DNA from: an uncultured Candidatus Poseidoniales archaeon
Lineage (GTDB): Archaea > Thermoplasmatota > Poseidoniia > Poseidoniales > Thalassarchaeaceae
Length of the DNA: 64,000 nt
Direction: 5' to 3'
Assembly: GCA_964576865.1 (NCBI GenBank)
Contig: CAZNVK010000002.1
Location: 9,692 to 73,691, forward strand
Shown: in pieces, positions 22,068 through 34,244 of the stretch
How the letters are laid out: each line of letters opens with the position of its first letter
Position numbering within the stretch: position 1 is the stretch's first letter
The notes under the pieces: generated by a model
The model's database searches: none
Told to the model about the DNA's origin: nothing
Seen by the model: only the letters and a program-made list of their open reading frames with translations
Program-made: the position numbers and the translations under genes

Positions 22068-22141
22068 GCCGAGGTTTTCCCGTCTCGTAACCCTCCATTC
22101 GCACCCGTGTGATTCATAATCCGACCCTCGGTGGCCGCGCT

Positions 22142-22999
22142 ATGACCTCATGGCCTGAACTTGAGCCAATGCCAAACCGCCTCGTCAATTACGGCGTTAC
22201 CGAGAATGGAATCGCTATCATCGAACTCGCCTCCAATTCAGCGGGCGCTCCCCTCGAAGGAGACGAGGTCGGCCCGAACACCTACACTCACGAAATGATG
22301 CGCGACATCGACACGGCGGTCGTCAAGGCGCGCTTCGACGATGATGTCAGCGTCATTCTGATCACCGGCAATGGACACAAGTTCTTCTCTGCCGGTGCAT
22401 CAATCCAGATGCTAAACTCGGTTACTCCCGGCTTCAAGTACAATTTCTGCCTACACGCGAATGAGACTCTCAGCCGCCTTGAGCAGACCCCCAAGCTCGT
22501 CATCTGCGCCATCAACGGTCACGCTGTCGGCGGCGGCCTAGAGATCGCAATGGCTTGCGACATCCGCATCGCCCGCAAGGACAGCGGCAAGTGTGGCCTC
22601 CCCGAGATCAACCTCGGCGTTCTCGCTGGAACCGGTGGAACCGCTCGCCTAACCCGCCTCATCGGTAAGGCTCGCGCCCTCGAATACATGGTCAGCGGAG
22701 AGTTGATGGCATTCGAGAAGGCCAAGGAAATGGACCTCATCAACGATGTTTGGGATGGGTCCCTCGAGGACTTCCGTCAGGACATCCTCGACTACGCCAG
22801 CCAGTACTGCCTACCATACAAGGCAACCATGGCAGTTGGCAACATCAAGCGCTCATGTCAGTCTGGACCTGAGATGCCATTCGAATACCACCTCGCGCTT
22901 GAGCGCGAGTTGCAGGCGGCGCTCTTCAACAGCGCTGACGCAAAGGAAGGCATCGCCGCATACGTTGAGCGCCGGACCCCTCGCTTCGAAGGCCGCTGA
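22142..22999 (+). CDS. enoyl-CoA hydratase/isomerase (crotonase) family protein
   Basis: Has FFSAGASI.. and INGHAVGGGLEIAMACDIRIA. ATG 22142. Confidence 0.8.
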   Translation: MTSWPELEPMPNRLVNYGVTENGIAIIELASNSAGAPLEGDEVGPNTYTHEMMRDIDTAVVKARFDDDVSVILITGNGHKFFSAGASIQMLNSVTPGFKYNFCLHANETLSRLEQTPKLVICAINGHAVGGGLEIAMACDIRIARKDSGKCGLPEINLGVLAGTGGTARLTRLIGKARALEYMVSGELMAFEKAKEMDLINDVWDGSLEDFRQDILDYASQYCLPYKATMAVGNIKRSCQSGPEMPFEYHLALERELQAALFNSADAKEGIAAYVERRTPRFEGR

Positions 23000-23031
23000 A
23001 CTCGGAAAACATCAGGCTCGATGAGCCTGAC

Positions 23032-23045
23032 CCGAACCCGTTCGG
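23032..23045. promoter_or_regulatory. palindromic site CCGAAC-CC-GTTCGG
   Basis: Read directly. It ends 37 bp upstream of the GTG start at 23082. Confidence 0.5.
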
Positions 23046-23081
23046 CTTCTGCTTCATTCAAGTGTAACCGCGCGCTGAATC

Positions 23082-23576
23082 GTGAGTGAGTGGACGTTAA
23101 CCACCTTCCTACACATGGGTGCGGCGGCGACATGGATCGGGTCAATGGGAGTCTACGCCTTTCTTATCGCACCTTATGCGAAAAAGCGGTTCGATGAGGC
23201 CGAATATATCCACTTCCTCAACGACATCGGACTACGATTCCGTCGACTGAGTTGGTTCTGTCTTGCTGTAATCGCCGTGACCGGAGCCAGACTGGCAGAC
23301 CTCATCTCAGGTTGGGAGGCATTTACTACAGCCTATGGGCACACAATGCCTCCAGCGAGCACGATTGCTTGGAAGATGTTGCTCGGTGTAACTTTGGTAA
23401 TCGTTGTCGCTTACCATGATTTTAGAGCCGGGCCGAAGGCGATTGCGTCCTTCCTTGAGCAACCGGACTCACCAGAGACCAGACGCCTTCGAAAAATTGC
23501 CACGAATCACGCCAGAATGATGATGTTACTCTCGATCATCATTTTCTATCTCGGAGTTTCGGTGCTCCGAGGTTGA
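23082..23576 (+). CDS. membrane protein, possibly CopD-like (copper handling)
   Basis: GTG start. Four helices, with N-terminal FLHMGAAATWIGSMGVY resembling the H..aaa.W.G pattern of CopD-type domains. The assignment is weak. Confidence 0.4.
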   Translation: MSEWTLTTFLHMGAAATWIGSMGVYAFLIAPYAKKRFDEAEYIHFLNDIGLRFRRLSWFCLAVIAVTGARLADLISGWEAFTTAYGHTMPPASTIAWKMLLGVTLVIVVAYHDFRAGPKAIASFLEQPDSPETRRLRKIATNHARMMMLLSIIIFYLGVSVLRG

Positions 23577-23577
23577 A

Positions 23578-24036
23578 TCAACAGAAATCTGAATCTCGAA
23601 GTCTTACTCCTAGCGATTCACCATTGACGATTGCAATTCCGTAATCATACAATTCAGAATTCCACCGTTCATCGAATTGGTGCCGTTCTGGCCAGATAAC
23701 CTTGACATCGCCATACCATTGCATCCGCTGTGATAGTGACGGGACGAAGGACCATACATCCTCCACGCCGAACAGCGCGATGACTGAAATATCCGCATCG
23801 ACATCCTCAATCGAGCTCGAAACTGTCTTCCCTTTGATTCGTTTATCCTCACGTGCGCACAGTGGACATACGAACCTGACTGAATCGCCACGCTGCATCA
23901 ATCGGTCTGCTACAAATTGAGAGGGGTGTCCTATCTCGTGGTCTGCACAGACGAATAACCAATTGTGTTGTTTCAAAGCCCAAGCAGCTGCCTCACCGCG
24001 GTTAGCGTTCCTCAAGGTGTGTAAATCGAGTTCCAT
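23578..24036 (-). CDS. hypothetical protein
   Basis: ORF 23578..24117 trimmed to ATG 24036 (MELDLHTL..). It has a CPLC motif and low G+C. No family recognised. Confidence 0.35.
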   Translation of the reverse strand: MELDLHTLRNANRGEAAAWALKQHNWLFVCADHEIGHPSQFVADRLMQRGDSVRFVCPLCAREDKRIKGKTVSSSIEDVDADISVIALFGVEDVWSFVPSLSQRMQWYGDVKVIWPERHQFDERWNSELYDYGIAIVNGESLGVRLRDSDFC

Positions 24037-24072
24037 GAACGGAATGAGTTCTGCGCGAATCTCAACCTTCCC

Positions 24073-24086
24073 CCGAACATGTCCGA
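24073..24086. promoter_or_regulatory. palindrome-family site CCGAAC-AT-GTCCGA, with a second half-site CCATTC-AT-GTTCGG at 24114..24127
   Basis: Read directly. Both lie in the gap upstream of ATG 24176. Confidence 0.4.
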
Positions 24087-24175
24087 AGCAGCAAATCGGT
24101 GCACTCTGCCACACCATTCATGTTCGGGTCATACCCTATCACATCCCTTCCTTCCCGTTGGATTGAGGTGAAAGG

Positions 24176-25978
24176 ATGAACCTGAACCAATTGATGAAAA
24201 ACAGAACACAGACCGCAATGCTGCTCGCATTATTGATGGTAACAGCTCCGCTTCTGGCAGGCTGTGTCGGAGGTAGCGACCTGTCTTGTGGAGAAGGAAC
24301 AGAACGACTAGGAGACGAGTGCGTTGTCGACGACTCCGAGCCTGTATGGCAAGGAGAATGGAAGGAATTCAATGTCGAGGCCGCACAATGGGATTTCATC
24401 CCGAGTGAGATAATCGTGAACGAGGGCGACCACGTTCGAATCACCTTCACCTCGACGATGGATGAGCAGGATCAGTATTTGCTCCATTCATTCTCTCTGA
24501 ACGCGTACGATATCGCTGTCGACTTGCCTGTCGGTGAATCTGTAACGGTTGAGTTCGTCGCTGACCAAGTCGGCGAGTTCGGCTACGACTGCTCGGTCTT
24601 TTGTGGAGACCGACACAACGACATGCTCGGGACGGTGATCGTCAACCCCGCTGGCGGTCAGGTCGTCGAGGCTGCTCCAACAATTGGAAACACCACTGCA
24701 TTGGAGATTAGCACCCAAATTTACGACACCACGACATCACCTGGTGGCACACCTGGATGGGTAAACGGAGATTTGATGATAGTCATCGAGCGTGAAGCCG
24801 AAGCAGTCGTGGTTGTTGATACATCGACCGACGAGATTGTCGGCCGTATTCACGGCTTGGGATATCAGCCTCACACCGTGGTATTCGACGAAGAGGCACG
24901 TTACGGTTACCTAATCAGCCGAGGAGGATGGTTCTCGAAAATCGACCTTGATGACCTATCAGTACCTGCATACATCAAGGTCGGTGAATCAAGTAGAGGA
25001 ACCGCTCTATCTTCTAATGGCAACTGGATTGCTGTCACGAATTACGAACCTTCGTCCTTCGTAATTGTCAACGCCCACACGATGGATATCGCCATGGAAT
25101 ACCAAATTCCGGTCCCATGGGTAGACGGTGAACCCCAGTTCTCTCGAGCTGCTAGTGCACTCGACACCGCAAATGGATACATCTTCGTGGCGATGAAGGA
25201 TCTGGGTGAGATTTGGGTCATCGACGCAGATGAGACACGATGGAGCGAGAGCCCATTCCCAGTCGTAAAGGTGTTCAACCACCAAGGTGGAATGCTCCAC
25301 GACGCATTCATCACCCCTGACGGACAGTACTACATTCTGGCTAGCCAAACCAGCCATCAGATGGCTGTTATCGACGCCGTCAATCTAGAGGAAGTTGCTC
25401 TTGTTGAGGTCGGGTTGAAGCCTCACCCAGGCCCAGGAGCGGTCTGGGCTGACTACATTTTCACCCCAAGTATTGGTGAGGGAAAACTCAACATCATCGA
25501 TTCAAGAACTTGGTCGAACGAGTTCGAGTTGCCAATCGGTGGTCCAGCGCTTTTCACAAGAACCTACGAGTTCGGTGACCCCACTACCGATGAGGAGTGG
25601 GAGAAGGACCCAGCCAACCTGCAGTATCCATACATCTGGTGGGACACAGTTCTCTCGACCGATATGGAGGAGAACAAAGAGGTCTACGTCCTCGACGCCC
25701 GTGAGCTCTATGTCCCAGGAGCGACCGATGATAGCATCGCTGCGACCGTCTGGACGCTGAAAGACAACGATTGTGAAGGTCGTACGCTGCACCCCGAATT
25801 CAGCCACGATGGAACCAAGGTGTATGTCTCGTGCTGGGCCGAGGAGGGATTCCTGTTGATCTACGAGTCGACGCCTGGTGCTGATGGCGAGTTCGACCTG
25901 CTCGGAAAGATCGAAGGAATCGCCAATCCGACTGGAACCTTCGGTGTCGGACTAAGGTCCGAGGAGATTGGAGTCTGA
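24176..25978 (+). CDS. lipoprotein: N-terminal CuA-type cupredoxin domain fused to cytochrome-cd1 (NirS d1-domain)-like beta-propeller
   Basis: Lipobox LLAGC. The CuA ligand pattern is HSF-x32-CSVFCGDRHNDM (H-x34-C-x3-C-G-x2-H-x2-M). Propeller segments match NirS from memory: GYQPHTVVFDEEARYGYL, MLHDAFITPDGQYY, KPHPGPGAVW, HPEFSHDGTKVYVSCW and NPTGTFGV. Confidence 0.7.
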   Translation: MNLNQLMKNRTQTAMLLALLMVTAPLLAGCVGGSDLSCGEGTERLGDECVVDDSEPVWQGEWKEFNVEAAQWDFIPSEIIVNEGDHVRITFTSTMDEQDQYLLHSFSLNAYDIAVDLPVGESVTVEFVADQVGEFGYDCSVFCGDRHNDMLGTVIVNPAGGQVVEAAPTIGNTTALEISTQIYDTTTSPGGTPGWVNGDLMIVIEREAEAVVVVDTSTDEIVGRIHGLGYQPHTVVFDEEARYGYLISRGGWFSKIDLDDLSVPAYIKVGESSRGTALSSNGNWIAVTNYEPSSFVIVNAHTMDIAMEYQIPVPWVDGEPQFSRAASALDTANGYIFVAMKDLGEIWVIDADETRWSESPFPVVKVFNHQGGMLHDAFITPDGQYYILASQTSHQMAVIDAVNLEEVALVEVGLKPHPGPGAVWADYIFTPSIGEGKLNIIDSRTWSNEFELPIGGPALFTRTYEFGDPTTDEEWEKDPANLQYPYIWWDTVLSTDMEENKEVYVLDARELYVPGATDDSIAATVWTLKDNDCEGRTLHPEFSHDGTKVYVSCWAEEGFLLIYESTPGADGEFDLLGKIEGIANPTGTFGVGLRSEEIGV

Positions 25979-25988
25979 TTATCGTAAG

Positions 25989-26030
25989 CCGTTGGGGGGC
26001 GACCAGCCCCCCAACGGCCCCCCATTTTTT
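25989..26030 (+). terminator. stem-loop plus T-run
   Basis: CCGTTGGGGGGC-GACCA-GCCCCCCAACGG (12-bp stem) is followed by CCCCCCATTTTTT. Confidence 0.6.
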
Positions 26031-26043
26031 GGAGTTGAACTCT

Positions 26044-26466
26044 ATGAAAATACCACTTAACGTCGAGAGGATGATGGATACAGACGTTATCAAATTGAGT
26101 GGAAATACTAACGTGACTCAAGCCATGGAATCGATGCACGAAGCCGGTGTATGGTCTGTCATCGTCACTCTGGATGGAGAACCCAGAGGCGTTGTCACCG
26201 AACGCGACCTACTCCGTAGATGCTTCAGACCGAAGCAGAATCCAGACTTTGTTCTCCTGAGGGAGATTATGAGTTATCCATTGGTGACTATCGACCGTGA
26301 TCTGCCCGTCGGCTCTGCCCTCAATCTGCTTCTCGCCGACGAGATTAGACGAATCTACGTCATCAATGCCGAGGGCAATATAATCGGCAGAGTGACACAG
26401 ACGGGTTGCCTCGAGGCTACTCTCAATCTGATTCTCGGAATGCAAAGTACGTTCGAACAGATCTAG
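26044..26466 (+). CDS. CBS-domain pair protein
   Basis: ATG 26044 (the TTG at 26029 sits inside the terminator T-run). Two CBS-like units (..VIKLSGNTNVTQAMESM....VIV.., ..PLVTIDRDLPVGSALNLL..IRRIYVIN). Confidence 0.65.
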   Translation: MKIPLNVERMMDTDVIKLSGNTNVTQAMESMHEAGVWSVIVTLDGEPRGVVTERDLLRRCFRPKQNPDFVLLREIMSYPLVTIDRDLPVGSALNLLLADEIRRIYVINAEGNIIGRVTQTGCLEATLNLILGMQSTFEQI

Positions 26467-26500
26467 ATCGACCTGACGCCGCGAGAGAATCCTGTCAAGT

Positions 26501-27082
26501 TCAGAACCCACACCAGATTCGTTCTTCCATAGACTCGATTAGTTCCGAATCGATATGCCAGAACCCAATCCACTCGCCATCAACCATACGTCCTTCGTAA
26601 GCTTCAACTCTCGATTCTGAGGTTAAACTGCCTGAATGGTATTCAATATCGCCAGAGGTGAATCCTCGGACGATAAAGACGACTCCATCGGACTCAAGAT
26701 CTAGAATCGAATCATCTCCACTCGAGCCGAAAACTCCCTCGATTTGGAAATTTCCAATTTCATCAACCGTGGCGATGAATCCATCTCTACCACCACGGTT
26801 GGTTTGGTTCTCGAATCCAGGAGAAGCAGACTCCCAAGTCCCTGCGATGTGAAGAGACCCCTCGATCAATACCACATCGCTGATCGTAGTCTTCCCCTCT
26901 CGTGATTCAGATGGATTTCGCGCGAGGTCAAGAGACTCCAGTGTCGATATCTGCTCCAGGGTCAGATCGGCAGAGGTCACTCCAGCCGACTCAGAACCTC
27001 CTCCAAGCAGAATCATTGGGGACATCGCCAAGAGGATCGCCAAGGCGAATGGCGCAGATACAAGAAGCAGCTTGTTTTCCAT
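26501..27082 (-). CDS. secreted beta-propeller-repeat-like protein
   Basis: Trimmed to ATG 27082 (MENKLLLVSAPFALAILLAMSP signal). Has GGRDGFIATVD and GSSGDD repeat-like motifs. Confidence 0.45.
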   Translation of the reverse strand: MENKLLLVSAPFALAILLAMSPMILLGGGSESAGVTSADLTLEQISTLESLDLARNPSESREGKTTISDVVLIEGSLHIAGTWESASPGFENQTNRGGRDGFIATVDEIGNFQIEGVFGSSGDDSILDLESDGVVFIVRGFTSGDIEYHSGSLTSESRVEAYEGRMVDGEWIGFWHIDSELIESMEERIWCGF

Positions 27083-27120
27083 CTTGGAAGGCCTGACTTG
27101 ATGGATTTCCAATAATTCGC

Positions 27121-27134
27121 CCGAACATGTTCGT
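27121..27134. promoter_or_regulatory. palindromic site CCGAAC-AT-GTTCGt (distal, upstream of a TTTTATT box)
   Basis: Read directly. It lies in the divergent gap 27083..27224. Confidence 0.5.
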
Positions 27135-27172
27135 AATCACTCTTGATTTTATTCTCGATGTTTCTAACAACA

Positions 27173-27186
27173 CCGAATCTGTTCGG
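27173..27186. promoter_or_regulatory. palindromic site CCGAAT-CT-GTTCGG (proximal)
   Basis: Read directly. It ends 39 bp upstream of the coxC ATG 27225. Confidence 0.5.
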
Positions 27187-27224
27187 GTCTCAGGTAATGG
27201 TGCTCGCAGCACTCGCCGGTTCAG

Positions 27225-28013
27225 ATGAACGATTTGAACGCACTACTCCACCATGATTCAAATGGCCAGGTTCACAACAGTCTAGCACCTCTAATCGTAG
27301 CCCTCGCCGTTACACTCTGCTTAGGTGGGTTGCTCATCTGGCCCCTCGCGATTCTCGGCTTACCACTGTTGATTCTGGGGATCAGAACTTGGCTCGCAGA
27401 GGAGGTCGAATTTTGGCCAAAAAGAGAATCGCAAACAGATTTCGAGGTTTGGGGAGACGCGTCTTGGGCGATGCTATGGATCATCATAACGGAGACCATA
27501 GTGTTCTCCGCATTCTTCGCCTACTGGTTCTGGACTCGTTGGCACACCGTGAACTGGTCGGGCGCTGTTGGTGGATCGTGGCCAGCTACAGGGGTCGACC
27601 ATGACTTGTTCTTGGTTGGGATCAACACCATCCTGTTGATCTCTTCTGGATTCACAGCACATCGAGCCTTGGAAGCACACGATCGAGATGACCTCAACTC
27701 CTCGTCCAAATTCCTCGTTGCAACAATCCTTCTCGGAACCGCGTTCCTCGCGATACAGGCATACGAGTATCTACATGCGGGATTCGTCTGGAGTGACCAT
27801 CCCTACGGCACCGCATTCTTTGCACTGACTGGCCTACACGGTCTACACGTTCTGGTTGGCTTGGTCATGCTCGCCGTGGTTCTTTTGCTGATGAAAACGG
27901 ATCGTTTTCCTCGTGCACGTCACGATGGTTTTCGAGCGATTACCAATTATTGGCACTTCGTTGACGCCGTCTGGATTATCCTGTTCTTCGTTGTCTACTT
28001 GGAGGTGATTTGA
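27225..28013 (+). CDS. coxC: cytochrome c oxidase subunit III
   Basis: Multi-TM, with ..FFALTGLHGLHVLVG.. and ..YWHFVDAVWI.. signatures. Confidence 0.85.
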   Translation: MNDLNALLHHDSNGQVHNSLAPLIVALAVTLCLGGLLIWPLAILGLPLLILGIRTWLAEEVEFWPKRESQTDFEVWGDASWAMLWIIITETIVFSAFFAYWFWTRWHTVNWSGAVGGSWPATGVDHDLFLVGINTILLISSGFTAHRALEAHDRDDLNSSSKFLVATILLGTAFLAIQAYEYLHAGFVWSDHPYGTAFFALTGLHGLHVLVGLVMLAVVLLLMKTDRFPRARHDGFRAITNYWHFVDAVWIILFFVVYLEVI

Positions 28014-28756
28014 TGCGATTCAACAAGACCCAACTCGGGCTCATCATCGGTTCCATATTGGTTTTGATGATGACGTTCGCATCCATCTTCAACTGGTTCC
28101 GAGGACTCGGTGGCAGTGGCGCTCACGCAGAGGTTTACGACGAGCTGTTTACTCTGTATTGGGTGCTTGGAAGCATAATCGGGATAATCGTTTACGCCTG
28201 GTTCGTCTACTTGCTCGTCGGTTCCTTCGGCGATGATGCCGGCGAGCCGATGGAGATTGGCGCAGCACCAGTGATTCGAGGCTCAAACAAGGGTGCGGTC
28301 ACCATTTCGGTAGTGATAATGGTCTTCCTGCTCGTTCTCTCGGACACTACATTCGATTCGATCGACTTTTTTGAGAAGCACGAGGAACATACTACCGAAG
28401 ACTCGTTCACAATTGCAGTGACTGGATACCAGTACTATTGGGATTATCAGTATCCGAATGGTAAGAGCATCAACAGCGCCAGCGGTGAGGCACTGAAGAT
28501 TCCCGTCGATGTTCCTGTTGTCTTCGAAGTCACCGCTGGTGACGTCTTCCATTCCTTCGCACTCCCCGACCATCGCATCAAGATCGATGCGATTCCTGGT
28601 CGTGTGAATGAAGGGTGGATACTTGCCGATGAGATTGGCATGTTCCCTGTTCGCTGCGCGGAGCTTTGCGGAGATGAACACGCAATCATGGTTGGTGAAA
28701 TCGAAGTCATGACAGTGGAAGACTTCGATGCTTGGTATGAGGAGGTGGAAGTTTGA
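28013..28756 (+). CDS. coxB: cytochrome c oxidase subunit II (CuA)
   Basis: The ATG overlaps the coxC stop (TGATG). Two N-terminal TMs. CuA motif HSFALP...CAELCGDEHAIM. Confidence 0.85.
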   Translation: MRFNKTQLGLIIGSILVLMMTFASIFNWFRGLGGSGAHAEVYDELFTLYWVLGSIIGIIVYAWFVYLLVGSFGDDAGEPMEIGAAPVIRGSNKGAVTISVVIMVFLLVLSDTTFDSIDFFEKHEEHTTEDSFTIAVTGYQYYWDYQYPNGKSINSASGEALKIPVDVPVVFEVTAGDVFHSFALPDHRIKIDAIPGRVNEGWILADEIGMFPVRCAELCGDEHAIMVGEIEVMTVEDFDAWYEEVEV

Positions 28757-31014
28757 TCGGTTCGAAGAAGAAAATCAGTACAAGCAAGGCTCTGTCCATA
28801 CTCGTCATCAGTTCACTGCTGCTCATCGCAACACCACAATTCGCAGCACTTCCGGGTGGAATCTCAGGGCCATCCGTTGGAGCTGGATGTAATTGTCATG
28901 GGGCGGTTGCCAGCGATGATGTCACAATTATCTTGGAGGGATTGCCGGATGAGTTCATCGCTGGTGAGACGTACCTTGTAAACATCTCATTCGAGGGTGG
29001 GCCCGAAGCAAGTGGAGAGAATTATGGTGGATTCAATCTAGCCGCATCTCGAGGCACTTTCACTGTGCTCGATAACTCCATCCAAATCATGGATGGCGCT
29101 GTGACACACAGCGAATCGGGTAATGACCAAAGGTCCTGGCAAGTTGAGTGGACAGCACCATCTTCTGACAAGGTGAGTTCTCAATTCACCCTGCTCGTTA
29201 ATTCCGTCAATGGTGATGGCTACGCCACTAGCGATGACAAGTGGAATCGCCTCGATTTCTCTGTCCAAGGTCAGAACGCAGGCTCTGGTTCGATTATGGA
29301 CATCGCCGACCCCGCTTGGTTGATCATCGTCGGCGCATTGATTGGTACGATTCTGGCTGTGGTCTATGCACTATATCGAAAGCCCAATTTCGGTCGCAAG
29401 GAGTTGATGCATTGGCTGACGACTACAAACCACAAGGATATCGGTCTGCTCTACCTGTGGACGACGATTCTGTTCTCGATGATCGGACTGGCTCTCTCAG
29501 TCCTAATTCGTCTACAGCTCGTCGTGCCTGACAATGATTTCATGACTGGAGATCTGTTCAACCAAGCAGTCACGATGCATGGCGCCGTGATGGTGCTATT
29601 CGCGATCTCGCCGATGTCATTCGCCTTCGCGAATTACATCGTTCCACTACAAATCGGCGCCCGCGACATGGCCTTCCCACGGCTGAACGCCTTGTCATTC
29701 TGGACACTTCTTCTGGGAGGATTGGTTGCAGCGTCGGGCTTCTTTTTCGATGGAGCGGCTGATGTCGGCTGGACATTCTACTCGCCGCTCACCAGCATCG
29801 AGTACAGCCCAGGATCAGGTGTATCACTTGCTGGTGCTGGACTAGTCCTTCTCATCATCTCGGTGACAGCCTCGACGGTGAATTTCCTCGTCACAATCTC
29901 GAATCACCGAGTTCCGAGCATGAGGATGTGGGACATGCCCATGTACACCTGGAACGTTCTGTTCACCGTTATCCTCATGCTCGTTGTCTTCCCTGCACTT
30001 CTGGCCGCCGTCCTGATGCTCGTAGGTGACAGAGTCTTCGGCACTATGTTCTTCGATCCCAGCATCGATGGAACTACCTGGTGGCTTCACATCTTCTGGT
30101 TCTTCGGCCACCCCGAGGTCTACATCGTTCTGCTTCCTGGACTCGGGATGGCGATGGAGATCGTCCCTACCTTTGTGCGTAAGCATCTCTACGGTCGCAA
30201 GACCATCATCTACGCTTTGATGATCGCCTCAGTCCTCAGTGTATTGGTCTGGGCTCACCACATGTTCATCACAGGAATCGACCCACTATTCCGCAAGATA
30301 GAGACCATCGGCACCGAACTCATCTCGGTGCCGTTCGCGCTCATCTATCTGAGCCTGCTCGCAACTTTCCACAAATCCAAACCAGATTTCACGAAGTTGC
30401 CACTCGTCTTCGTCATGGGTGCAGTTGGGATATTCCTAGTTGGTGGAATCACAGGAGTATATCTCGCCAGCGTGGCTATGGACGTACAATTACGAGGCAC
30501 ATACTTCATCGTCGCTCACTTCCACTACACACTCGGCGCGGTGGCTGTGATGACCCTCGGCGGAATCTACTACTGGTATCCCAAGATGTTCGGGAGGATG
30601 CTCGATGAACGGTTGGGATGGTGGCATTTCTGGACTACATTCCTAGGAATCAATCTGACATTCATCCCTCTATTCGGCTTGTGGGACATGCCCCGCCGAA
30701 TATACGTCTATCAGGTCGAGGCGGGATGGGCTGACCAGCACCTCTGGGCAACCATCGGCTCCCTCGTGGTCTTTATTGGTCAGGTTATCTTCTTCTGGAA
30801 TTTCATCCGCAGCCTCAAGCACGGCGAAGAGGCTGGCGACGACCCCTGGGGAGGACACACCTTTGAGTGGTTGACGAGCTCCCCTCCGCCCGCACACAAT
30901 TGGGACAATCTACCAATGATGTCAGGTTGTATCGATTGTGGTAATTGTGACTGTTCGAAGGAAATCGGTGGTAGATGCTCAAGCTGCGAGAAGACCTTGA
31001 ATATCCCTGCGTGA
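28753..31014 (+). CDS. coxA: cytochrome c oxidase subunit I with extra N-terminal secreted reeler-like GCxCHG domain and C-terminal Cys-rich tail
   Basis: The TTG start overlaps the coxB stop (TTGA) and has GGAGGTGG 5 nt upstream. The subunit I core has WFFGHPEVY and AHHMF. The first ~190 aa are a signal plus a non-oxidase domain. The last 32 aa carry 6 Cys. Confidence 0.85.
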   Translation: MIGSKKKISTSKALSILVISSLLLIATPQFAALPGGISGPSVGAGCNCHGAVASDDVTIILEGLPDEFIAGETYLVNISFEGGPEASGENYGGFNLAASRGTFTVLDNSIQIMDGAVTHSESGNDQRSWQVEWTAPSSDKVSSQFTLLVNSVNGDGYATSDDKWNRLDFSVQGQNAGSGSIMDIADPAWLIIVGALIGTILAVVYALYRKPNFGRKELMHWLTTTNHKDIGLLYLWTTILFSMIGLALSVLIRLQLVVPDNDFMTGDLFNQAVTMHGAVMVLFAISPMSFAFANYIVPLQIGARDMAFPRLNALSFWTLLLGGLVAASGFFFDGAADVGWTFYSPLTSIEYSPGSGVSLAGAGLVLLIISVTASTVNFLVTISNHRVPSMRMWDMPMYTWNVLFTVILMLVVFPALLAAVLMLVGDRVFGTMFFDPSIDGTTWWLHIFWFFGHPEVYIVLLPGLGMAMEIVPTFVRKHLYGRKTIIYALMIASVLSVLVWAHHMFITGIDPLFRKIETIGTELISVPFALIYLSLLATFHKSKPDFTKLPLVFVMGAVGIFLVGGITGVYLASVAMDVQLRGTYFIVAHFHYTLGAVAVMTLGGIYYWYPKMFGRMLDERLGWWHFWTTFLGINLTFIPLFGLWDMPRRIYVYQVEAGWADQHLWATIGSLVVFIGQVIFFWNFIRSLKHGEEAGDDPWGGHTFEWLTSSPPPAHNWDNLPMMSGCIDCGNCDCSKEIGGRCSSCEKTLNIPA

Positions 31015-31024
31015 AGGGGCGCTT

Positions 31025-31573
31025 ATGCAGGACGATCGCTGGGCATGGCTCATCGCTCTGTTCTGCGCCCTGCTGATAGCCTTCGCTCCCTCGGCTGTCG
31101 CGGATGACCACGATGAGGACGAGGATGAACACGATGACGAAGGCAGGGAGAACGAATTGGAGGATGCTGGCGAGACTGTTGGTGAGATCTCTGCCTGGTT
31201 GCTGGGTTTGACTCTGGCGTACTTCGGATGGAAAAGGGTCCTGCCGCCGATTCGAAAGCGATTGAAGGCGTCCGAACAGAAGGACCAACTCAAACGATTG
31301 AACTCATGGAACAAGCGTGCCATTCCCATCCACACTCTCCTCGGGACTGCGGCTCTGATTACCGGATTCATTCACGGATTGATGATGGACGAATCGCATC
31401 CAACCCTGTGGATCGCCCTCTTCCTCATGGGCGTTCTATCCGTGTCAGGTAGTCTGATGCGATGGAAATGGCCGCCTCGTGAAGTCAAGAGAGGTGCCCG
31501 ATTGCTACACATGCAGAGGCTGATATCGCTCGTGGTCGTGGCGCTCCTCTTCGTAGGTCACGAGATGGTCTGA
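31025..31573 (+). CDS. membrane protein: signal, Asp/Glu/His-rich segment, 4 TM helices with 4 His (cytochrome-b-like)
   Basis: DDHDEDEDEHDDEGRENELED, then helices carrying IPIHTLLG, FIHGL, LLHMQ and VGHE. Confidence 0.5.
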   Translation: MQDDRWAWLIALFCALLIAFAPSAVADDHDEDEDEHDDEGRENELEDAGETVGEISAWLLGLTLAYFGWKRVLPPIRKRLKASEQKDQLKRLNSWNKRAIPIHTLLGTAALITGFIHGLMMDESHPTLWIALFLMGVLSVSGSLMRWKWPPREVKRGARLLHMQRLISLVVVALLFVGHEMV

Positions 31574-31610
31574 AAGCCGGAATCTACCAAATAATCGGCA
31601 TTACACTCAA

Positions 31611-31626
31611 CCCGAACATGTTCGGG
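31611..31626. promoter_or_regulatory. perfect 16-bp palindrome CCCGAACATGTTCGGG, with a half-site CCTGCT-AT-GTTCGG at 31651..31664
   Basis: Read directly. The ATG at 31618 lies inside the palindrome, so I place the CDS start downstream. Confidence 0.55.
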
Positions 31627-31671
31627 GCGAGTGATATTGTGCTTACTTTGCCTGCTATGTTCGGGGGTCAG

Positions 31672-32355
31672 ATGCGAGCAAGACTAACTCCTCCATCCGG
31701 TGGCTTCTTGGCGAAGGGGTCCGTCATTTCACTACTGATCATTCTCCTTCTGGCTCCCACTTCATTCGCATTTCCTACAGGCATCTCTGGTTCATCGGTT
31801 GACCTAGGTTGTATGTGCCATGGTGACGCGACCACCGACGAGTCGGTCGAGATCCAGTTACTCGGTCTGCCCGAAGTCTGGGATGTCGGAGTTGCCTATG
31901 AACTGACTCTGCAGGTGAGCTCGGCTGTCCCTGAGAATGGAGAAACAACAGCTGGATTCAATCTGCGAGCGACCGCAGGTATTCTAGTTGCGATTGACAC
32001 CTCTGTCCAATTATTGGATGGTGAATTGACCCATACCGAAGCAGGCAACTCTCAAAGGTCCTGGGATTTCATCTGGACGGCCCCCTCGAAGGCTAGTCCA
32101 AGGGTCGGATTCAAAGCCTTCGTCAATACTGTCGATGGAGATGGAACCGCTGATTCTGAGGACCGGTGGAACTCCTTCGAGACGCAGGCCAATGGACCCG
32201 CAGCGGTTTGGACGGGTACTGATTCTCCTCCCGTTTGGAAATCCATGCTTCTGGGTCTCTTCCTCGCAGCGATTGTAGTAAACATCCTCCCTCATGGTGG
32301 TGGAGCAGCTGAGATTCGCGGCAAGAGAAGCCAGATCTCAGAAGGCGAGGAATGA
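31672..32355 (+). CDS. secreted, C-terminally anchored paralog of the CoxA N-terminal GCxCHG (reeler-like) domain
   Basis: Start trimmed to ATG 31672 (MRARLTPPSG.. signal). It aligns by eye with CoxA residues ~30-190: GISGxSV..GCxCHG, GLP, GFNLxA, THxExGNxQRSW..WTAPS, VNxVxGDG..WN. C-terminal TM LLGLFLAAIVVNIL. Confidence 0.55.
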   Translation: MRARLTPPSGGFLAKGSVISLLIILLLAPTSFAFPTGISGSSVDLGCMCHGDATTDESVEIQLLGLPEVWDVGVAYELTLQVSSAVPENGETTAGFNLRATAGILVAIDTSVQLLDGELTHTEAGNSQRSWDFIWTAPSKASPRVGFKAFVNTVDGDGTADSEDRWNSFETQANGPAAVWTGTDSPPVWKSMLLGLFLAAIVVNILPHGGGAAEIRGKRSQISEGEE

Positions 32356-32396
32356 ATATGGGAAGTGTACCAAGCATGGTCCGGAGAAAGGTCGAC

Positions 32397-33050
32397 ATGC
32401 AGCACCTCCTGATTTCAATCCGTCTTCCTGAGGGGCATTGGGCTGGGGATTTAACTCGGTCTAATCCAGGCGTATCAATTCGAGTTGACGAACATATGGC
32501 CCTTCCCGAAGGCCGAGGTCTCAGCACTATCGTTGTAGCTGGAAATGGCATGGATCGCTTCGTTAGCGACCTCGAAGCTCACGACGGAATGGAGGGAGCA
32601 GCCATTTTCGAAGAGCATGAGGACACGATCGAAATGAGTGTTACAATCGCACGTCACGGTGGAGGATTCCTTCGCCCACTAATCAGAGCCGAAGTGACGC
32701 CACAGACACCTTTCACTGTCAGGGATGGTTGGGTTGAATGGGAGTTTGTAACCGACCACGAGCACGTCAAGAAGTTAGTGAAGGGGCTCAAAGAGTCCGA
32801 ACTCCCACACAGAATCCACTCACTCTCAAAGGAATCGACTTCTCGCCTATTGACGGTAAGACAACGCGAGGTCTTCGACCTAGCTGTATCTGAGGGATAT
32901 TATGACAATCCACGTCGCATCACTCTGACCGCGCTCGCAGAGAAGGCGGGCGTCTCCAAATCAACACTCTGTGAGATGATTCACCTCATCGAGAAGAACA
33001 TCATCGATGAATTTGCAGATTCCGTAAGGAGGCAGAGTCCAAGAGACTGA
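32397..33050 (+). CDS. HTH_10 (bacterio-opsin-activator-type) transcription regulator
   Basis: C-terminal LTVRQREVFDLAVSEGYYDNPRRITLTALAEKAGVSKSTLCEMIHLIEKNI. Trimmed to ATG 32397. Confidence 0.7.
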   Translation: MQHLLISIRLPEGHWAGDLTRSNPGVSIRVDEHMALPEGRGLSTIVVAGNGMDRFVSDLEAHDGMEGAAIFEEHEDTIEMSVTIARHGGGFLRPLIRAEVTPQTPFTVRDGWVEWEFVTDHEHVKKLVKGLKESELPHRIHSLSKESTSRLLTVRQREVFDLAVSEGYYDNPRRITLTALAEKAGVSKSTLCEMIHLIEKNIIDEFADSVRRQSPRD

Positions 33051-33101
33051 ACTACAGGCTACAAAGTAGCCTTTGATAAGCAGAACTGATTCGGTGAGAA
33101 T

Positions 33102-34244
33102 ATGGCAGAGACAGAGATCGTACAGGACTACTCCCCGAACTTCGAGGCGTGGATTCAGGATTTCAGCGAATGGCAGACTCGAATCGGTTTCGACCCATCT
33201 TGGTTGGGCGATTACCGATTCGACATCAAATTCGATTGGGACACCGCTGGAACCCAAATCGAATTTGGCGATTTTGAGGGCATGCCAAAGTGGCAGCGCC
33301 GCATGCAAATTCCACAACAAAACATCCGTGACGCGATTATCTCGATGGTCAGCGTGCAGGGCGACACCGAGTTCGCCAGCGTCGAGCAGCAGAACCACTT
33401 GCTGGCGACCGCACCGACCGAGTACGACCGCAAGTCAGCCCTGCGAATCATGTGCGAAGAGCAGCGCCACGGATGGCAGATGGCCTACCTGCTGTGCACC
33501 TACTTCGGCGAGCACGGAGTCCGCGAGGCTGCAAAGTTGCTCGAGCGTAACGCGCAGGAAGGAACTCGCATCCTCGGTTCCTTCAACGCACCCATCGACC
33601 ACTGGCTCGATTTCTTCTGCTTCACCCACTTCATCGACCGCGACGGCAAGTACCAACTGAAGATGCTCAGCACATCTTCCTTCCAGCCGCTCGCCGCCTC
33701 GATGGGCCCGATGCTGAAGGAGGAATCCTTCCACTTGGGAACCGGAGCCAACGGACTGCGCCGAATCGTCAAGCAGGGAGTAATCCCATGCGCTCTCCTT
33801 CAGAAGTACCTCAACAAGTGGGTCAGCACAGGACTCGACCTCTTCGGCACCGATGATTCGACATCGGCCCAGTGGGCCTATGTCTACGGAGTCAAGGGCC
33901 GCTACGACGAGCGCGAATCCGCTGAGGCGGCTGACCGTGAACACCTCAACGAAGCCAGCCGAGAACTCTACTTCGAGGAATTGCGCGACGAGATGGTCCG
34001 CATCTCCAAGGCGCGCAAAGAAGGCGAGCCGGAGTTGTTCATTCCATCTGACAAGTTCAACCGCGGCATCGGAAAATACGCTGGAAAGCGATACACGATC
34101 GAAGGCAACCCGTTTGAGGGGTCCGAGGAAGAGTGGAACGCTTACCTTGACGAGGTTCTCCCGACCGACGAGGACGAGGACCGTCTGATGAACGAATACA
34201 TGCAGCAAGAATGGATCCAATACCGCGAGTGGAAGGGCAACTGA
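33102..34244 (+). CDS. di-iron (ferritin-like) oxygenase of the BoxB / PaaA family
   Basis: VQGDTEFASVEQQNHL..APTEYD, MCEEQRHGWQMAYLL, FIDRDGKYQL and MLKEESFHLGTG parallel benzoyl-CoA epoxidase BoxB as I recall it. It is shorter (380 aa). Confidence 0.6.
   Translation: MAETEIVQDYSPNFEAWIQDFSEWQTRIGFDPSWLGDYRFDIKFDWDTAGTQIEFGDFEGMPKWQRRMQIPQQNIRDAIISMVSVQGDTEFASVEQQNHLLATAPTEYDRKSALRIMCEEQRHGWQMAYLLCTYFGEHGVREAAKLLERNAQEGTRILGSFNAPIDHWLDFFCFTHFIDRDGKYQLKMLSTSSFQPLAASMGPMLKEESFHLGTGANGLRRIVKQGVIPCALLQKYLNKWVSTGLDLFGTDDSTSAQWAYVYGVKGRYDERESAEAADREHLNEASRELYFEELRDEMVRISKARKEGEPELFIPSDKFNRGIGKYAGKRYTIEGNPFEGSEEEWNAYLDEVLPTDEDEDRLMNEYMQQEWIQYREWKGN

Follow-up and report, generated by a model that had tools for sequence, protein, structure and literature searches.

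Which protein, if any, reads the palindrome CCGAAC-N2-GTTCGG that recurs between the genes of an oxidase-bearing island in a marine archaeon? The sites lie in a 64,000-nt window (G000:C2:9692-73691; positions below are those of this window) of a metagenome-assembled genome (MAG) of the Thalassarchaeaceae, or Marine Group II b (MGIIb), which amounts to 1.65 Mb on 50 contigs and is 84.6% complete. All of them fall within an accessory island of ~10.1 kb (23000..33100) inserted between an enoyl-CoA hydratase gene and a PaaA/BoxB-like gene. A sequence-only reading of this DNA had listed seven such sites, interpreted them as dimeric operators and proposed an HTH_10 protein encoded nearby as their binder. 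Comparison with related DNA indicates that the sites are real, conserved operators, and we predict with good confidence that they are bound by a dimer of the island's own HTH_10 regulator. Given such binding, activation is somewhat the better-supported outcome, on the basis of the position of the sites, the weak TATA elements and mutagenesis in Haloferax. Binding, activation over repression and the nature of the signal are all points that we infer from sequence.

Palindromic sites and their frequency

All seven palindromes were recovered from the sequence where the earlier reading had placed them. S6 (31611-31626; CCCGAACATGTTCGGG) is a perfect 16-base palindrome that lies 45 nt 5' of the start of a gene for a reeler-like protein (31672) and 7 nt 5' of a conserved TATA-like element, GATATTG. 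S1 (23031-23046; CCCGAACCCGTTCGGC) ends 35 nt before the GTG start of a CopD-like gene (23082), S2 (24072-24087; CCCGAACATGTCCGAA) stands 35 nt 5' of the minus-strand start of a weak CoA_binding_2-like gene (24036), and S3 (24113-24128; ACCATTCATGTTCGGG) ends 47 nt before the ATG (24176) of a gene that joins cupredoxin and cytochrome-d1 domains (CuA-cd1). S4 (27120-27135; CCCGAACATGTTCGTA) lies 37 nt 5' of the minus-strand start of a gene for a 193-aa secreted protein (27082), and S5 (27172-27187; ACCGAATCTGTTCGGG) ends 37 nt before the coxC ATG (27225), where it would serve coxCBA and a gene for a four-transmembrane (4-TM) protein. S7 (31650-31665; GCCTGCTATGTTCGGG) ends 6 nt before the reeler-like start codon, near the expected transcription start. 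Because two of the four intergenic regions that carry sites are divergent promoters, six transcription units would be served rather than the four originally counted, namely CopD-like, CoA_binding_2-like, CuA-cd1 plus CBS, the 193-aa secreted protein, coxCBA plus 4-TM, and reeler-like plus HTH_10.

The number of sites exceeded chance expectation in the window and in the island. The window held 13 matches to CCGAAC-N2-GTTCGG with at most two mismatches, compared to 4.3 expected, and none of 100 shuffled sequences reached 13. In the genome as a whole there were two exact copies, both in the island (0.15 expected), and 10 copies with at most one mismatch (~5.2 expected). Four of these 10 fell in the 10.1-kb island, for which the expectation was 0.032 (Poisson P(≥4) = 4e-8), and the six elsewhere were at about the chance level (~5). 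The whole-genome scan that the sequence-only reading had called for thus found the motif enriched in the island and not commonplace. When the genome was scanned with a symmetrised position weight matrix, the island sites headed the ranking and all remaining strong matches lay within coding regions, as had been suspected by eye.

Several of the coding matches were accounted for by protein motifs. The top match outside the island (C31:8384-8399) encodes VVLPNMFGDIA, containing the PNMFGD signature of Iso_dh-family (isocitrate/isopropylmalate) dehydrogenases; PNMFGD is encoded by CCN AAC ATG TTC GGN, and further perfect or near-perfect palindromes outside islands were found in Iso_dh genes at L037-L046. 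Throughout the family, this coding constraint adds to the background count of the motif in whole genomes. Off-island perfect palindromes were considered as additional regulon members and rejected, since they encode this Iso_dh motif. Also rejected was TCCCAAGATGTTCGGG (30579-30594) within coxA, which encodes YWYPKMFG of subunit I and is found at this position in every coxA orthologue, a coding coincidence. A doubtful, weak match, GCAGAACTGATTCGGT (33080..33095), lies between the conserved TATA-like box of the BoxB-like gene (TTTGATAA) and its ATG (33102); it was set aside as a further operator on account of its low score (7.9 bits), this position and the presence of a similar sequence, ATTCGGTGA, at the same place in an island-free genome (G017).

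Conservation and co-inheritance with the regulator

Orthologues of the HTH_10 regulator (at least 53% identity) were found in 11 of 121 genomes of the family, representing six of its 13 genera. Footprinting of the orthologous islands, another check that had been suggested for this locus, recovered the palindrome at orthologous intergenic positions in all 11 regulator loci: 5' of the reeler-like/HTH_10 pair, in the spacer between the secreted-protein gene and coxC, 5' of cd1 or CBS, and 5' of CopD. Genus mates without the island had neither regulator nor motif. Genomes with an HTH_10 orthologue carried on average 3.4 copies of CCGAAYNNRTTCGG, compared to 0.69 in those without (~0.2 for a reversed control pattern), and much of the excess in the orthologue-free genomes was the PNMFGD coding motif.

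Sites were kept at orthologous positions in genomes G020, G019 and G004 amid diverging flanks; in G020, where they occupied the same positions, the neighbouring intergenic DNA was 73-82% identical. S1 was retained in G020 despite its diverged flanks and had equivalents 5' of CopD in G078 and G057. For S2, the half closest to the CoA_binding_2-like gene (reverse strand, ...CATGTTCGGG) was kept in G020, and sites orthologous to S3 stood 5' of the CBS gene in islands lacking the cd1 gene. S4 was present in nine of nine orthologous divergent regions, and S6 was invariant or nearly so in all 13 orthologous promoters, which came from six genera. The 17 nt directly 3' of S5 (TCTCAGGTAATGGTGCT) were identical in G020. 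A 19-codon open reading frame (27197-27256) that begins within TCTCAGGTAATGGTGCT and overlaps the start of coxC is unlikely to have any meaning.

At the reeler-like promoter, S6, GATATTG and S7 were invariant in four genomes, and the DNA further 5' could not be aligned. Only the right (proximal) half of S7 was conserved more widely, and the 39-bp spacing between S6 and S7 was kept in seven of the 13 orthologous promoters. In genus g11 (L051-L054), a CCCC...GGGG inverted repeat replaces S7, 20-50 nt 3' of the reeler-like promoter site and just before the start codon, and may be a 5' leader hairpin. ATGs within S6 (31618) and S7 (31657) are both in frame with the reeler-like open reading frame, and automatic gene calling consequently starts this gene inside the operator (31618). 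A start at 31672, followed by signal-peptide-like sequence, appears more likely. The ATGs were also considered as leaderless start codons and discarded, the pattern not being general across promoters.

A copy of the palindrome always stood 5' of the operon holding the regulator gene, including at L052-L054, which have no adjoining cox operon (L052 starts only ~700 nt 5' of the reeler-like gene, so that a cox operon farther upstream is possible there). The order reeler-like to HTH_10 was kept in 10 of the 11 loci; the remaining one (L055, in G070) has no reeler-like gene and carries its site between coxA and HTH_10. The stop and start codons of the reeler-like and HTH_10 genes overlap, and thus the two are probably one operon. 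The most constant unit was therefore the site with the reeler-like and regulator genes, a pattern that suggests that the pair is autoregulated. The earlier proposal of the HTH_10 protein as the likely binder is strengthened by this co-occurrence, by the copy before the regulator's operon and by the haloarchaeal homologues described below.

The limits of the island (~23000-33100) were set by island-free genomes (G023, G021, G041 and G047), in which the hydratase and BoxB-like genes are adjacent, with both regulator and motif missing between them. The G+C content of the island is 50-54%, compared to 56-61% across most other DNA of the window, and close orthologues of its CoxA were found in only three of 24 genus mates sampled (G020, 87%; G019 and G004, 78%). 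Gene order and families were taken from Pfam matches. On the plus strand unless stated otherwise, the hydratase gene (22109-22999) is followed by the CopD-like gene (23082-23576), the CoA_binding_2-like gene (24036-23578, minus strand), CuA-cd1 (24176-25978, with a Shine-Dalgarno sequence), a gene for a CBS pair (26029-26466), the secreted-protein gene (27082-26501, minus strand; no family), coxC (COX3; 27225-28013), coxB (COX2; 28010-28756), coxA (COX1 with an N-terminal reeler-like domain; 28753-31014), the 4-TM gene (31025-31573), the reeler-like gene (31672-32355), the HTH_10 gene (32352-33050, or from the ATG at 32397) and, outside the island, the PaaA/BoxB-like gene (33102-34244). The genes coxC, coxB, coxA and 4-TM form one operon span (27225-31573). 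No site was found at the housekeeping cox operon (contig C26), whose CoxA is 42% identical to the island copy. Terminator-like hairpins bracket the island, one after the hydratase gene (23011-23031; CAGGCTC-GAT-GAGCCTG) and one after the HTH_10 gene (33050-33070; AGGCTAC-AAA-GTAGCCT).

A perfect 16-nt palindrome could form a short hairpin, and the island is an insertion of lower G+C, both of which would fit a reading of the palindromes as RNA hairpins (terminators or leaders) or mobile-element relics rather than protein-binding DNA. We consider this highly improbable. Imperfect copies retained one intact half-site with the other degraded and without compensatory changes; across 43 oriented sites, which were drawn from related genomes and so are not independent of one another, the promoter-proximal half, TGTTCGG, was nearly invariant (12.0 bits) and the distal half scored 7.9 bits. 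Such one-sided decay therefore favours recognition by a protein and disfavours an RNA hairpin. The sites also stand upstream of genes with no T-runs after them, are spread over six promoters rather than placed at the island ends, and are separate from the real terminator-like hairpins at its two borders.

Promoter geometry and the direction of control

When oriented toward the gene served, sites ended 34-47 nt before the start codon and were followed after 2-7 nt by an A/T-rich TATA-like element (GATATTG, AATTATT, GTAATGG, TTCATTCA or TTGAGATT), start codons and TATA-like elements alike having been deduced from sequence. Across the genome, A/T content rose at -34 to -26 from the ATG, and a Shine-Dalgarno peak at -12 to -10 was present in ~15% of genes. 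Leaderless transcripts whose TATA box lies near -30 thus appear to be common in this organism, and the sites would then adjoin the B recognition element (BRE) on its upstream side or overlap it. With TATA boxes and transcription starts so assigned, the location would fit an upstream activating site.

Paired sites straddling a TATA-like box had been taken as the mark of a dimeric operator. The shared operator is borne out by its conservation amid diverging flanks. Straddling of a single TATA box, in contrast, was limited to the reeler-like promoter, the only place where a conserved TATA-like element (GATATTG) has a site on either side. The TTTTATT at 27148, between S4 and S5, had been offered as such a box and was rejected as the coxC TATA box, as the closest orthologous island (G020) does not retain it. 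The pairs in divergent regions would be better read as one full palindrome for each promoter, with a TATA-like element of its own next to it.

Overall, the mechanism that we favour would place one full site immediately upstream of the BRE/TATA of each of the six promoters, from where an HTH_10 dimer would most likely help TFB and TATA-binding protein (TBP) onto weak TATA-like elements and so activate transcription. The whole oxidase/cd1 island, including the regulator gene, would be switched on as one regulon, and the extra half-site S7, where transcription of the regulator's operon would begin, may confer negative feedback. In haloarchaea the same motif drives nirK, nor and nosZ at low oxygen, and by analogy the signal here would probably be oxygen limitation or a nitrogen oxide. 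GvpE, Ptr2 and TFB-RF1 are archaeal activators whose upstream activating site abuts the BRE/TATA. The sites described here would likewise stand directly upstream of a TATA-like element, centred ~45 bp before the inferred transcription start; those activators belong to unrelated protein families, and it is geometry from which we draw the parallel in mechanism.

The regulator, of 232 or 217 aa, contains an HTH_10 domain (Pfam PF04967; residues 167-219) that scored 56.9 bits relative to a gathering cut-off of 23.1 (E = 1.8e-15). In an AlphaFold2 model (pLDDT, the predicted local distance difference test score, 89.5), a beta-alpha-rich N-terminal region of ~150 aa precedes the helix-turn-helix (HTH). 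Its named homologues belong to MAGs of Candidatus Thalassarchaeaceae and Poseidoniaceae. No DNA-binding protein other than this regulator was found in the island. Two more HTH_10 genes in the genome (C8 and C16) have the HTH segment alone in common with the island protein, and the C16 paralogue occurs in 26 of 27 genomes of the genus and thus does not track the motif.

Several points weigh against the island protein as binder and activator. A site abutting the BRE could equally well occlude TFB, and so repress, and the TATA-like elements, themselves predicted from sequence, are weak and heterogeneous. A fold search with the sensor domain gave no clue to a ligand (top match Ta1207, TM-score 0.40). 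The recognition helix of the core paralogue C16 resembles that of the island protein (LSKSTVAE vs VSKSTLCE), several HTH_10 proteins may read similar sequences, and a related motif of Haloferax volcanii has been attributed to NarO, a different HTH_10 protein (PMC10062603, PMC11218638).

The similarity of the C16 recognition helix, and the naming of NarO for a related motif in the haloarchaeal literature, would suit a different binder, be it the C16 paralogue or an unrelated global regulator, with the island HTH_10 protein as a passenger. This is very unlikely in our view. The C16 gene is nearly universal in the genus, yet the motif is confined to island-bearing genomes; C8, C16 and NarO resemble the island protein in the HTH segment only; and the motif tracks homologues of the island regulator through MGIIb, Marine Group II a (MGIIa) and the Halobacteria.

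The sign of control is a separate matter. Local regulators encoded beside their targets are often repressors. Here, the proximal edge of the site lies 2-7 nt from the TATA-like element and overlaps the expected BRE, and S7 coincides with the predicted start of transcription of the operon that holds the regulator gene, so the HTH_10 protein might instead block TFB/TBP at or next to the BRE and hold the island off until released by an effector. We regard repression of this kind as unlikely, although it is the strongest competitor of the favoured model. In Haloferax mediterranei, mutation of the same motif lowered the activity of the nos and nor promoters, with no de-repression (PMC10062603). The weak TATA-like elements of the island suit activator-dependent promoters, and the near-invariant promoter-proximal half of the site suggests a fixed contact with the basal machinery.

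Relatives in Marine Group II a and the Halobacteria

Homologues of the regulator extend beyond the family. All five MGIIa genomes searched contained one, and in four of them (G028, G031, G032 and G034) an exact CGAACATGTTCG stood 5-25 nt past its stop codon. On MGIIa contig L059, a 207-aa homologue with 45% identity is encoded between FBPase and BoxB-like genes, and overlapping sites CCCTAACATGTTCAGG and GGCGAACATGTTCGTA (L059:8619-8648) lie 5 nt 5' of a TATAAG box. In MGIIa, CGAACATGTTCG precedes the TATA box of an operon encoding a BoxB-like protein and a 3-hydroxyacyl-CoA dehydrogenase, and therefore the regulon differs between the MGIIa and MGIIb families.

Searching plasmids with the island regulator (tblastn) returned 146 haloarchaeal records, 60 of which matched 80% or more of the protein, with 27-34% identity; full-length haloarchaeal homologues showed this identity over 88-97% of the protein. 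The alignment extended along the full length, with common residues P26, W30, G32, G56, P120, F121 and D125 in the N-domain and KST..E in the recognition helix. Six of seven homologues inspected were encoded in nirK/nor/nosZ/halocyanin clusters, and that of Haloterrigena turkmenica among copper-protein genes. The extended palindrome stood 41-47 nt 5' of the regulator start in five of the seven (L056, L057, L058, L067 and L068); the exceptions were Haloferax gibbonsii (L066), with a site 97 nt upstream, and H. turkmenica, where the site overlaps the annotated start. At the Halorussus homologue the site is a perfect CCCGAACATGTTCGGG, and the haloarchaeal loci had further palindrome copies 5' of nor and neighbouring genes. 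At L056, L058, L066 and L067, the motif was also seen 5' of genes for DUF2249 proteins, precursors of CGCGG-family ribosomally synthesised and post-translationally modified peptides (RiPPs) of the radical-SAM-modified (rSAM) type, radical-SAM proteins and halocyanins. The HTH_10 regulators of haloarchaeal nirK/nor clusters thus share full-length homology with the island protein and have CCGAACATGTTCGG 5' of the regulator and neighbouring respiratory genes, as S1-S7 do here, although identity is low and the Marine Group II proteins have invariant residues of their own (H29, M49 and GGGF 103-106). No DNA-binding test of members of this nirK/nor-cluster family was found in the literature searched.

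NarO of H. volcanii, an HTH_10 activator of nar and nir that is described as an oxygen sensor, is similar in having a C-terminal HTH_10 domain and ~210 aa, in being encoded beside the respiratory genes that it controls and in its association with a CGAA...TTCG-type repeat. Only the HTH of NarO (pHV3) aligned with the island protein, however (33% over 57 aa; island residues 167-223). NarO has cysteines at positions 17, 80, 82, 91 and 99, whereas the island protein has a single cysteine, inside the HTH, and none in its N-domain. Hattori and colleagues reportedly described in 2016 a role for conserved cysteines in the N-terminal sensor domain of NarO. From the HTH-only alignment and the different, cysteine-bearing N-domain of NarO, we conclude that the two proteins are not orthologues. 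The narO-nar spacer contained no high-scoring copy of the motif.

On balance, we lean toward the small HTH_10 family, not NarO, as the cognate binder of CGAACATGTTCG, and toward an autoregulated pair of regulator and site that predates the split between Halobacteria and Poseidoniales and has since been rewired from haloarchaeal denitrification genes to the BoxB-like di-iron oxygenase operon in MGIIa and to the transferable oxidase/cd1 island in MGIIb. Marine group II archaea are abundant and uncultured, and no published transcription-factor regulon for them was found in the literature searched. The island would provide a complete unit, with six promoters sharing one operator and one regulator, and its 10 kb of oxidase/CuA-cd1 DNA would act as one co-regulated module. 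Low oxygen or nitrogen oxides probably switch it on, which makes it relevant to the ways in which these archaea tolerate water poor in oxygen. If the proposed history is true, some of the most numerous planktonic archaea would carry a switch, conserved among archaea, that responds to oxygen or nitric-oxide status. Conservation across orders also singles out one protein family as the candidate binder of the denitrification motif of haloarchaea.

That motif is already known from haloarchaeal denitrification promoters; the regulon proposed here is different. In H. mediterranei, a semi-palindrome CGAAYATDKTYG with the core CGAACATGTTCG was identified by MEME in the nirK, nor and nosZ promoters, and mutation of CGAACATGTTCG lowered anoxic nos and nor promoter activity (PMC10062603). 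The same paper credits Hattori et al. 2016 with finding a similar motif in several haloarchaeal genera (PMC10062603). An HTH_10 protein without PAS and GAF domains, encoded in the H. mediterranei nirK-nor cluster, is a candidate regulator (E6P09_00735; PMC11218638) and, judging by its described location and domain make-up, is probably a member of the small nirK/nor HTH_10 regulators. The island sites share with the H. mediterranei motif the identical CGAACATGTTCG core (exact in S4 and S6, with the remaining sites 1-4 positions off), their recurrence at more than one promoter within a respiratory cluster that encodes many copper and heme proteins, and a position upstream of the core promoter; the extended CCGAACATGTTCGG form of haloarchaeal plasmids is identical too. 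Compared to H. mediterranei, the host here is a marine group II archaeon and not a halophile, start codons are nearer to the sites (34-47 nt vs 66-79 nt), and in place of nirK, nor and nos the motif would serve an accessory aa3-type oxidase, a CuA-cd1 fusion and CopD-like and reeler-like proteins.

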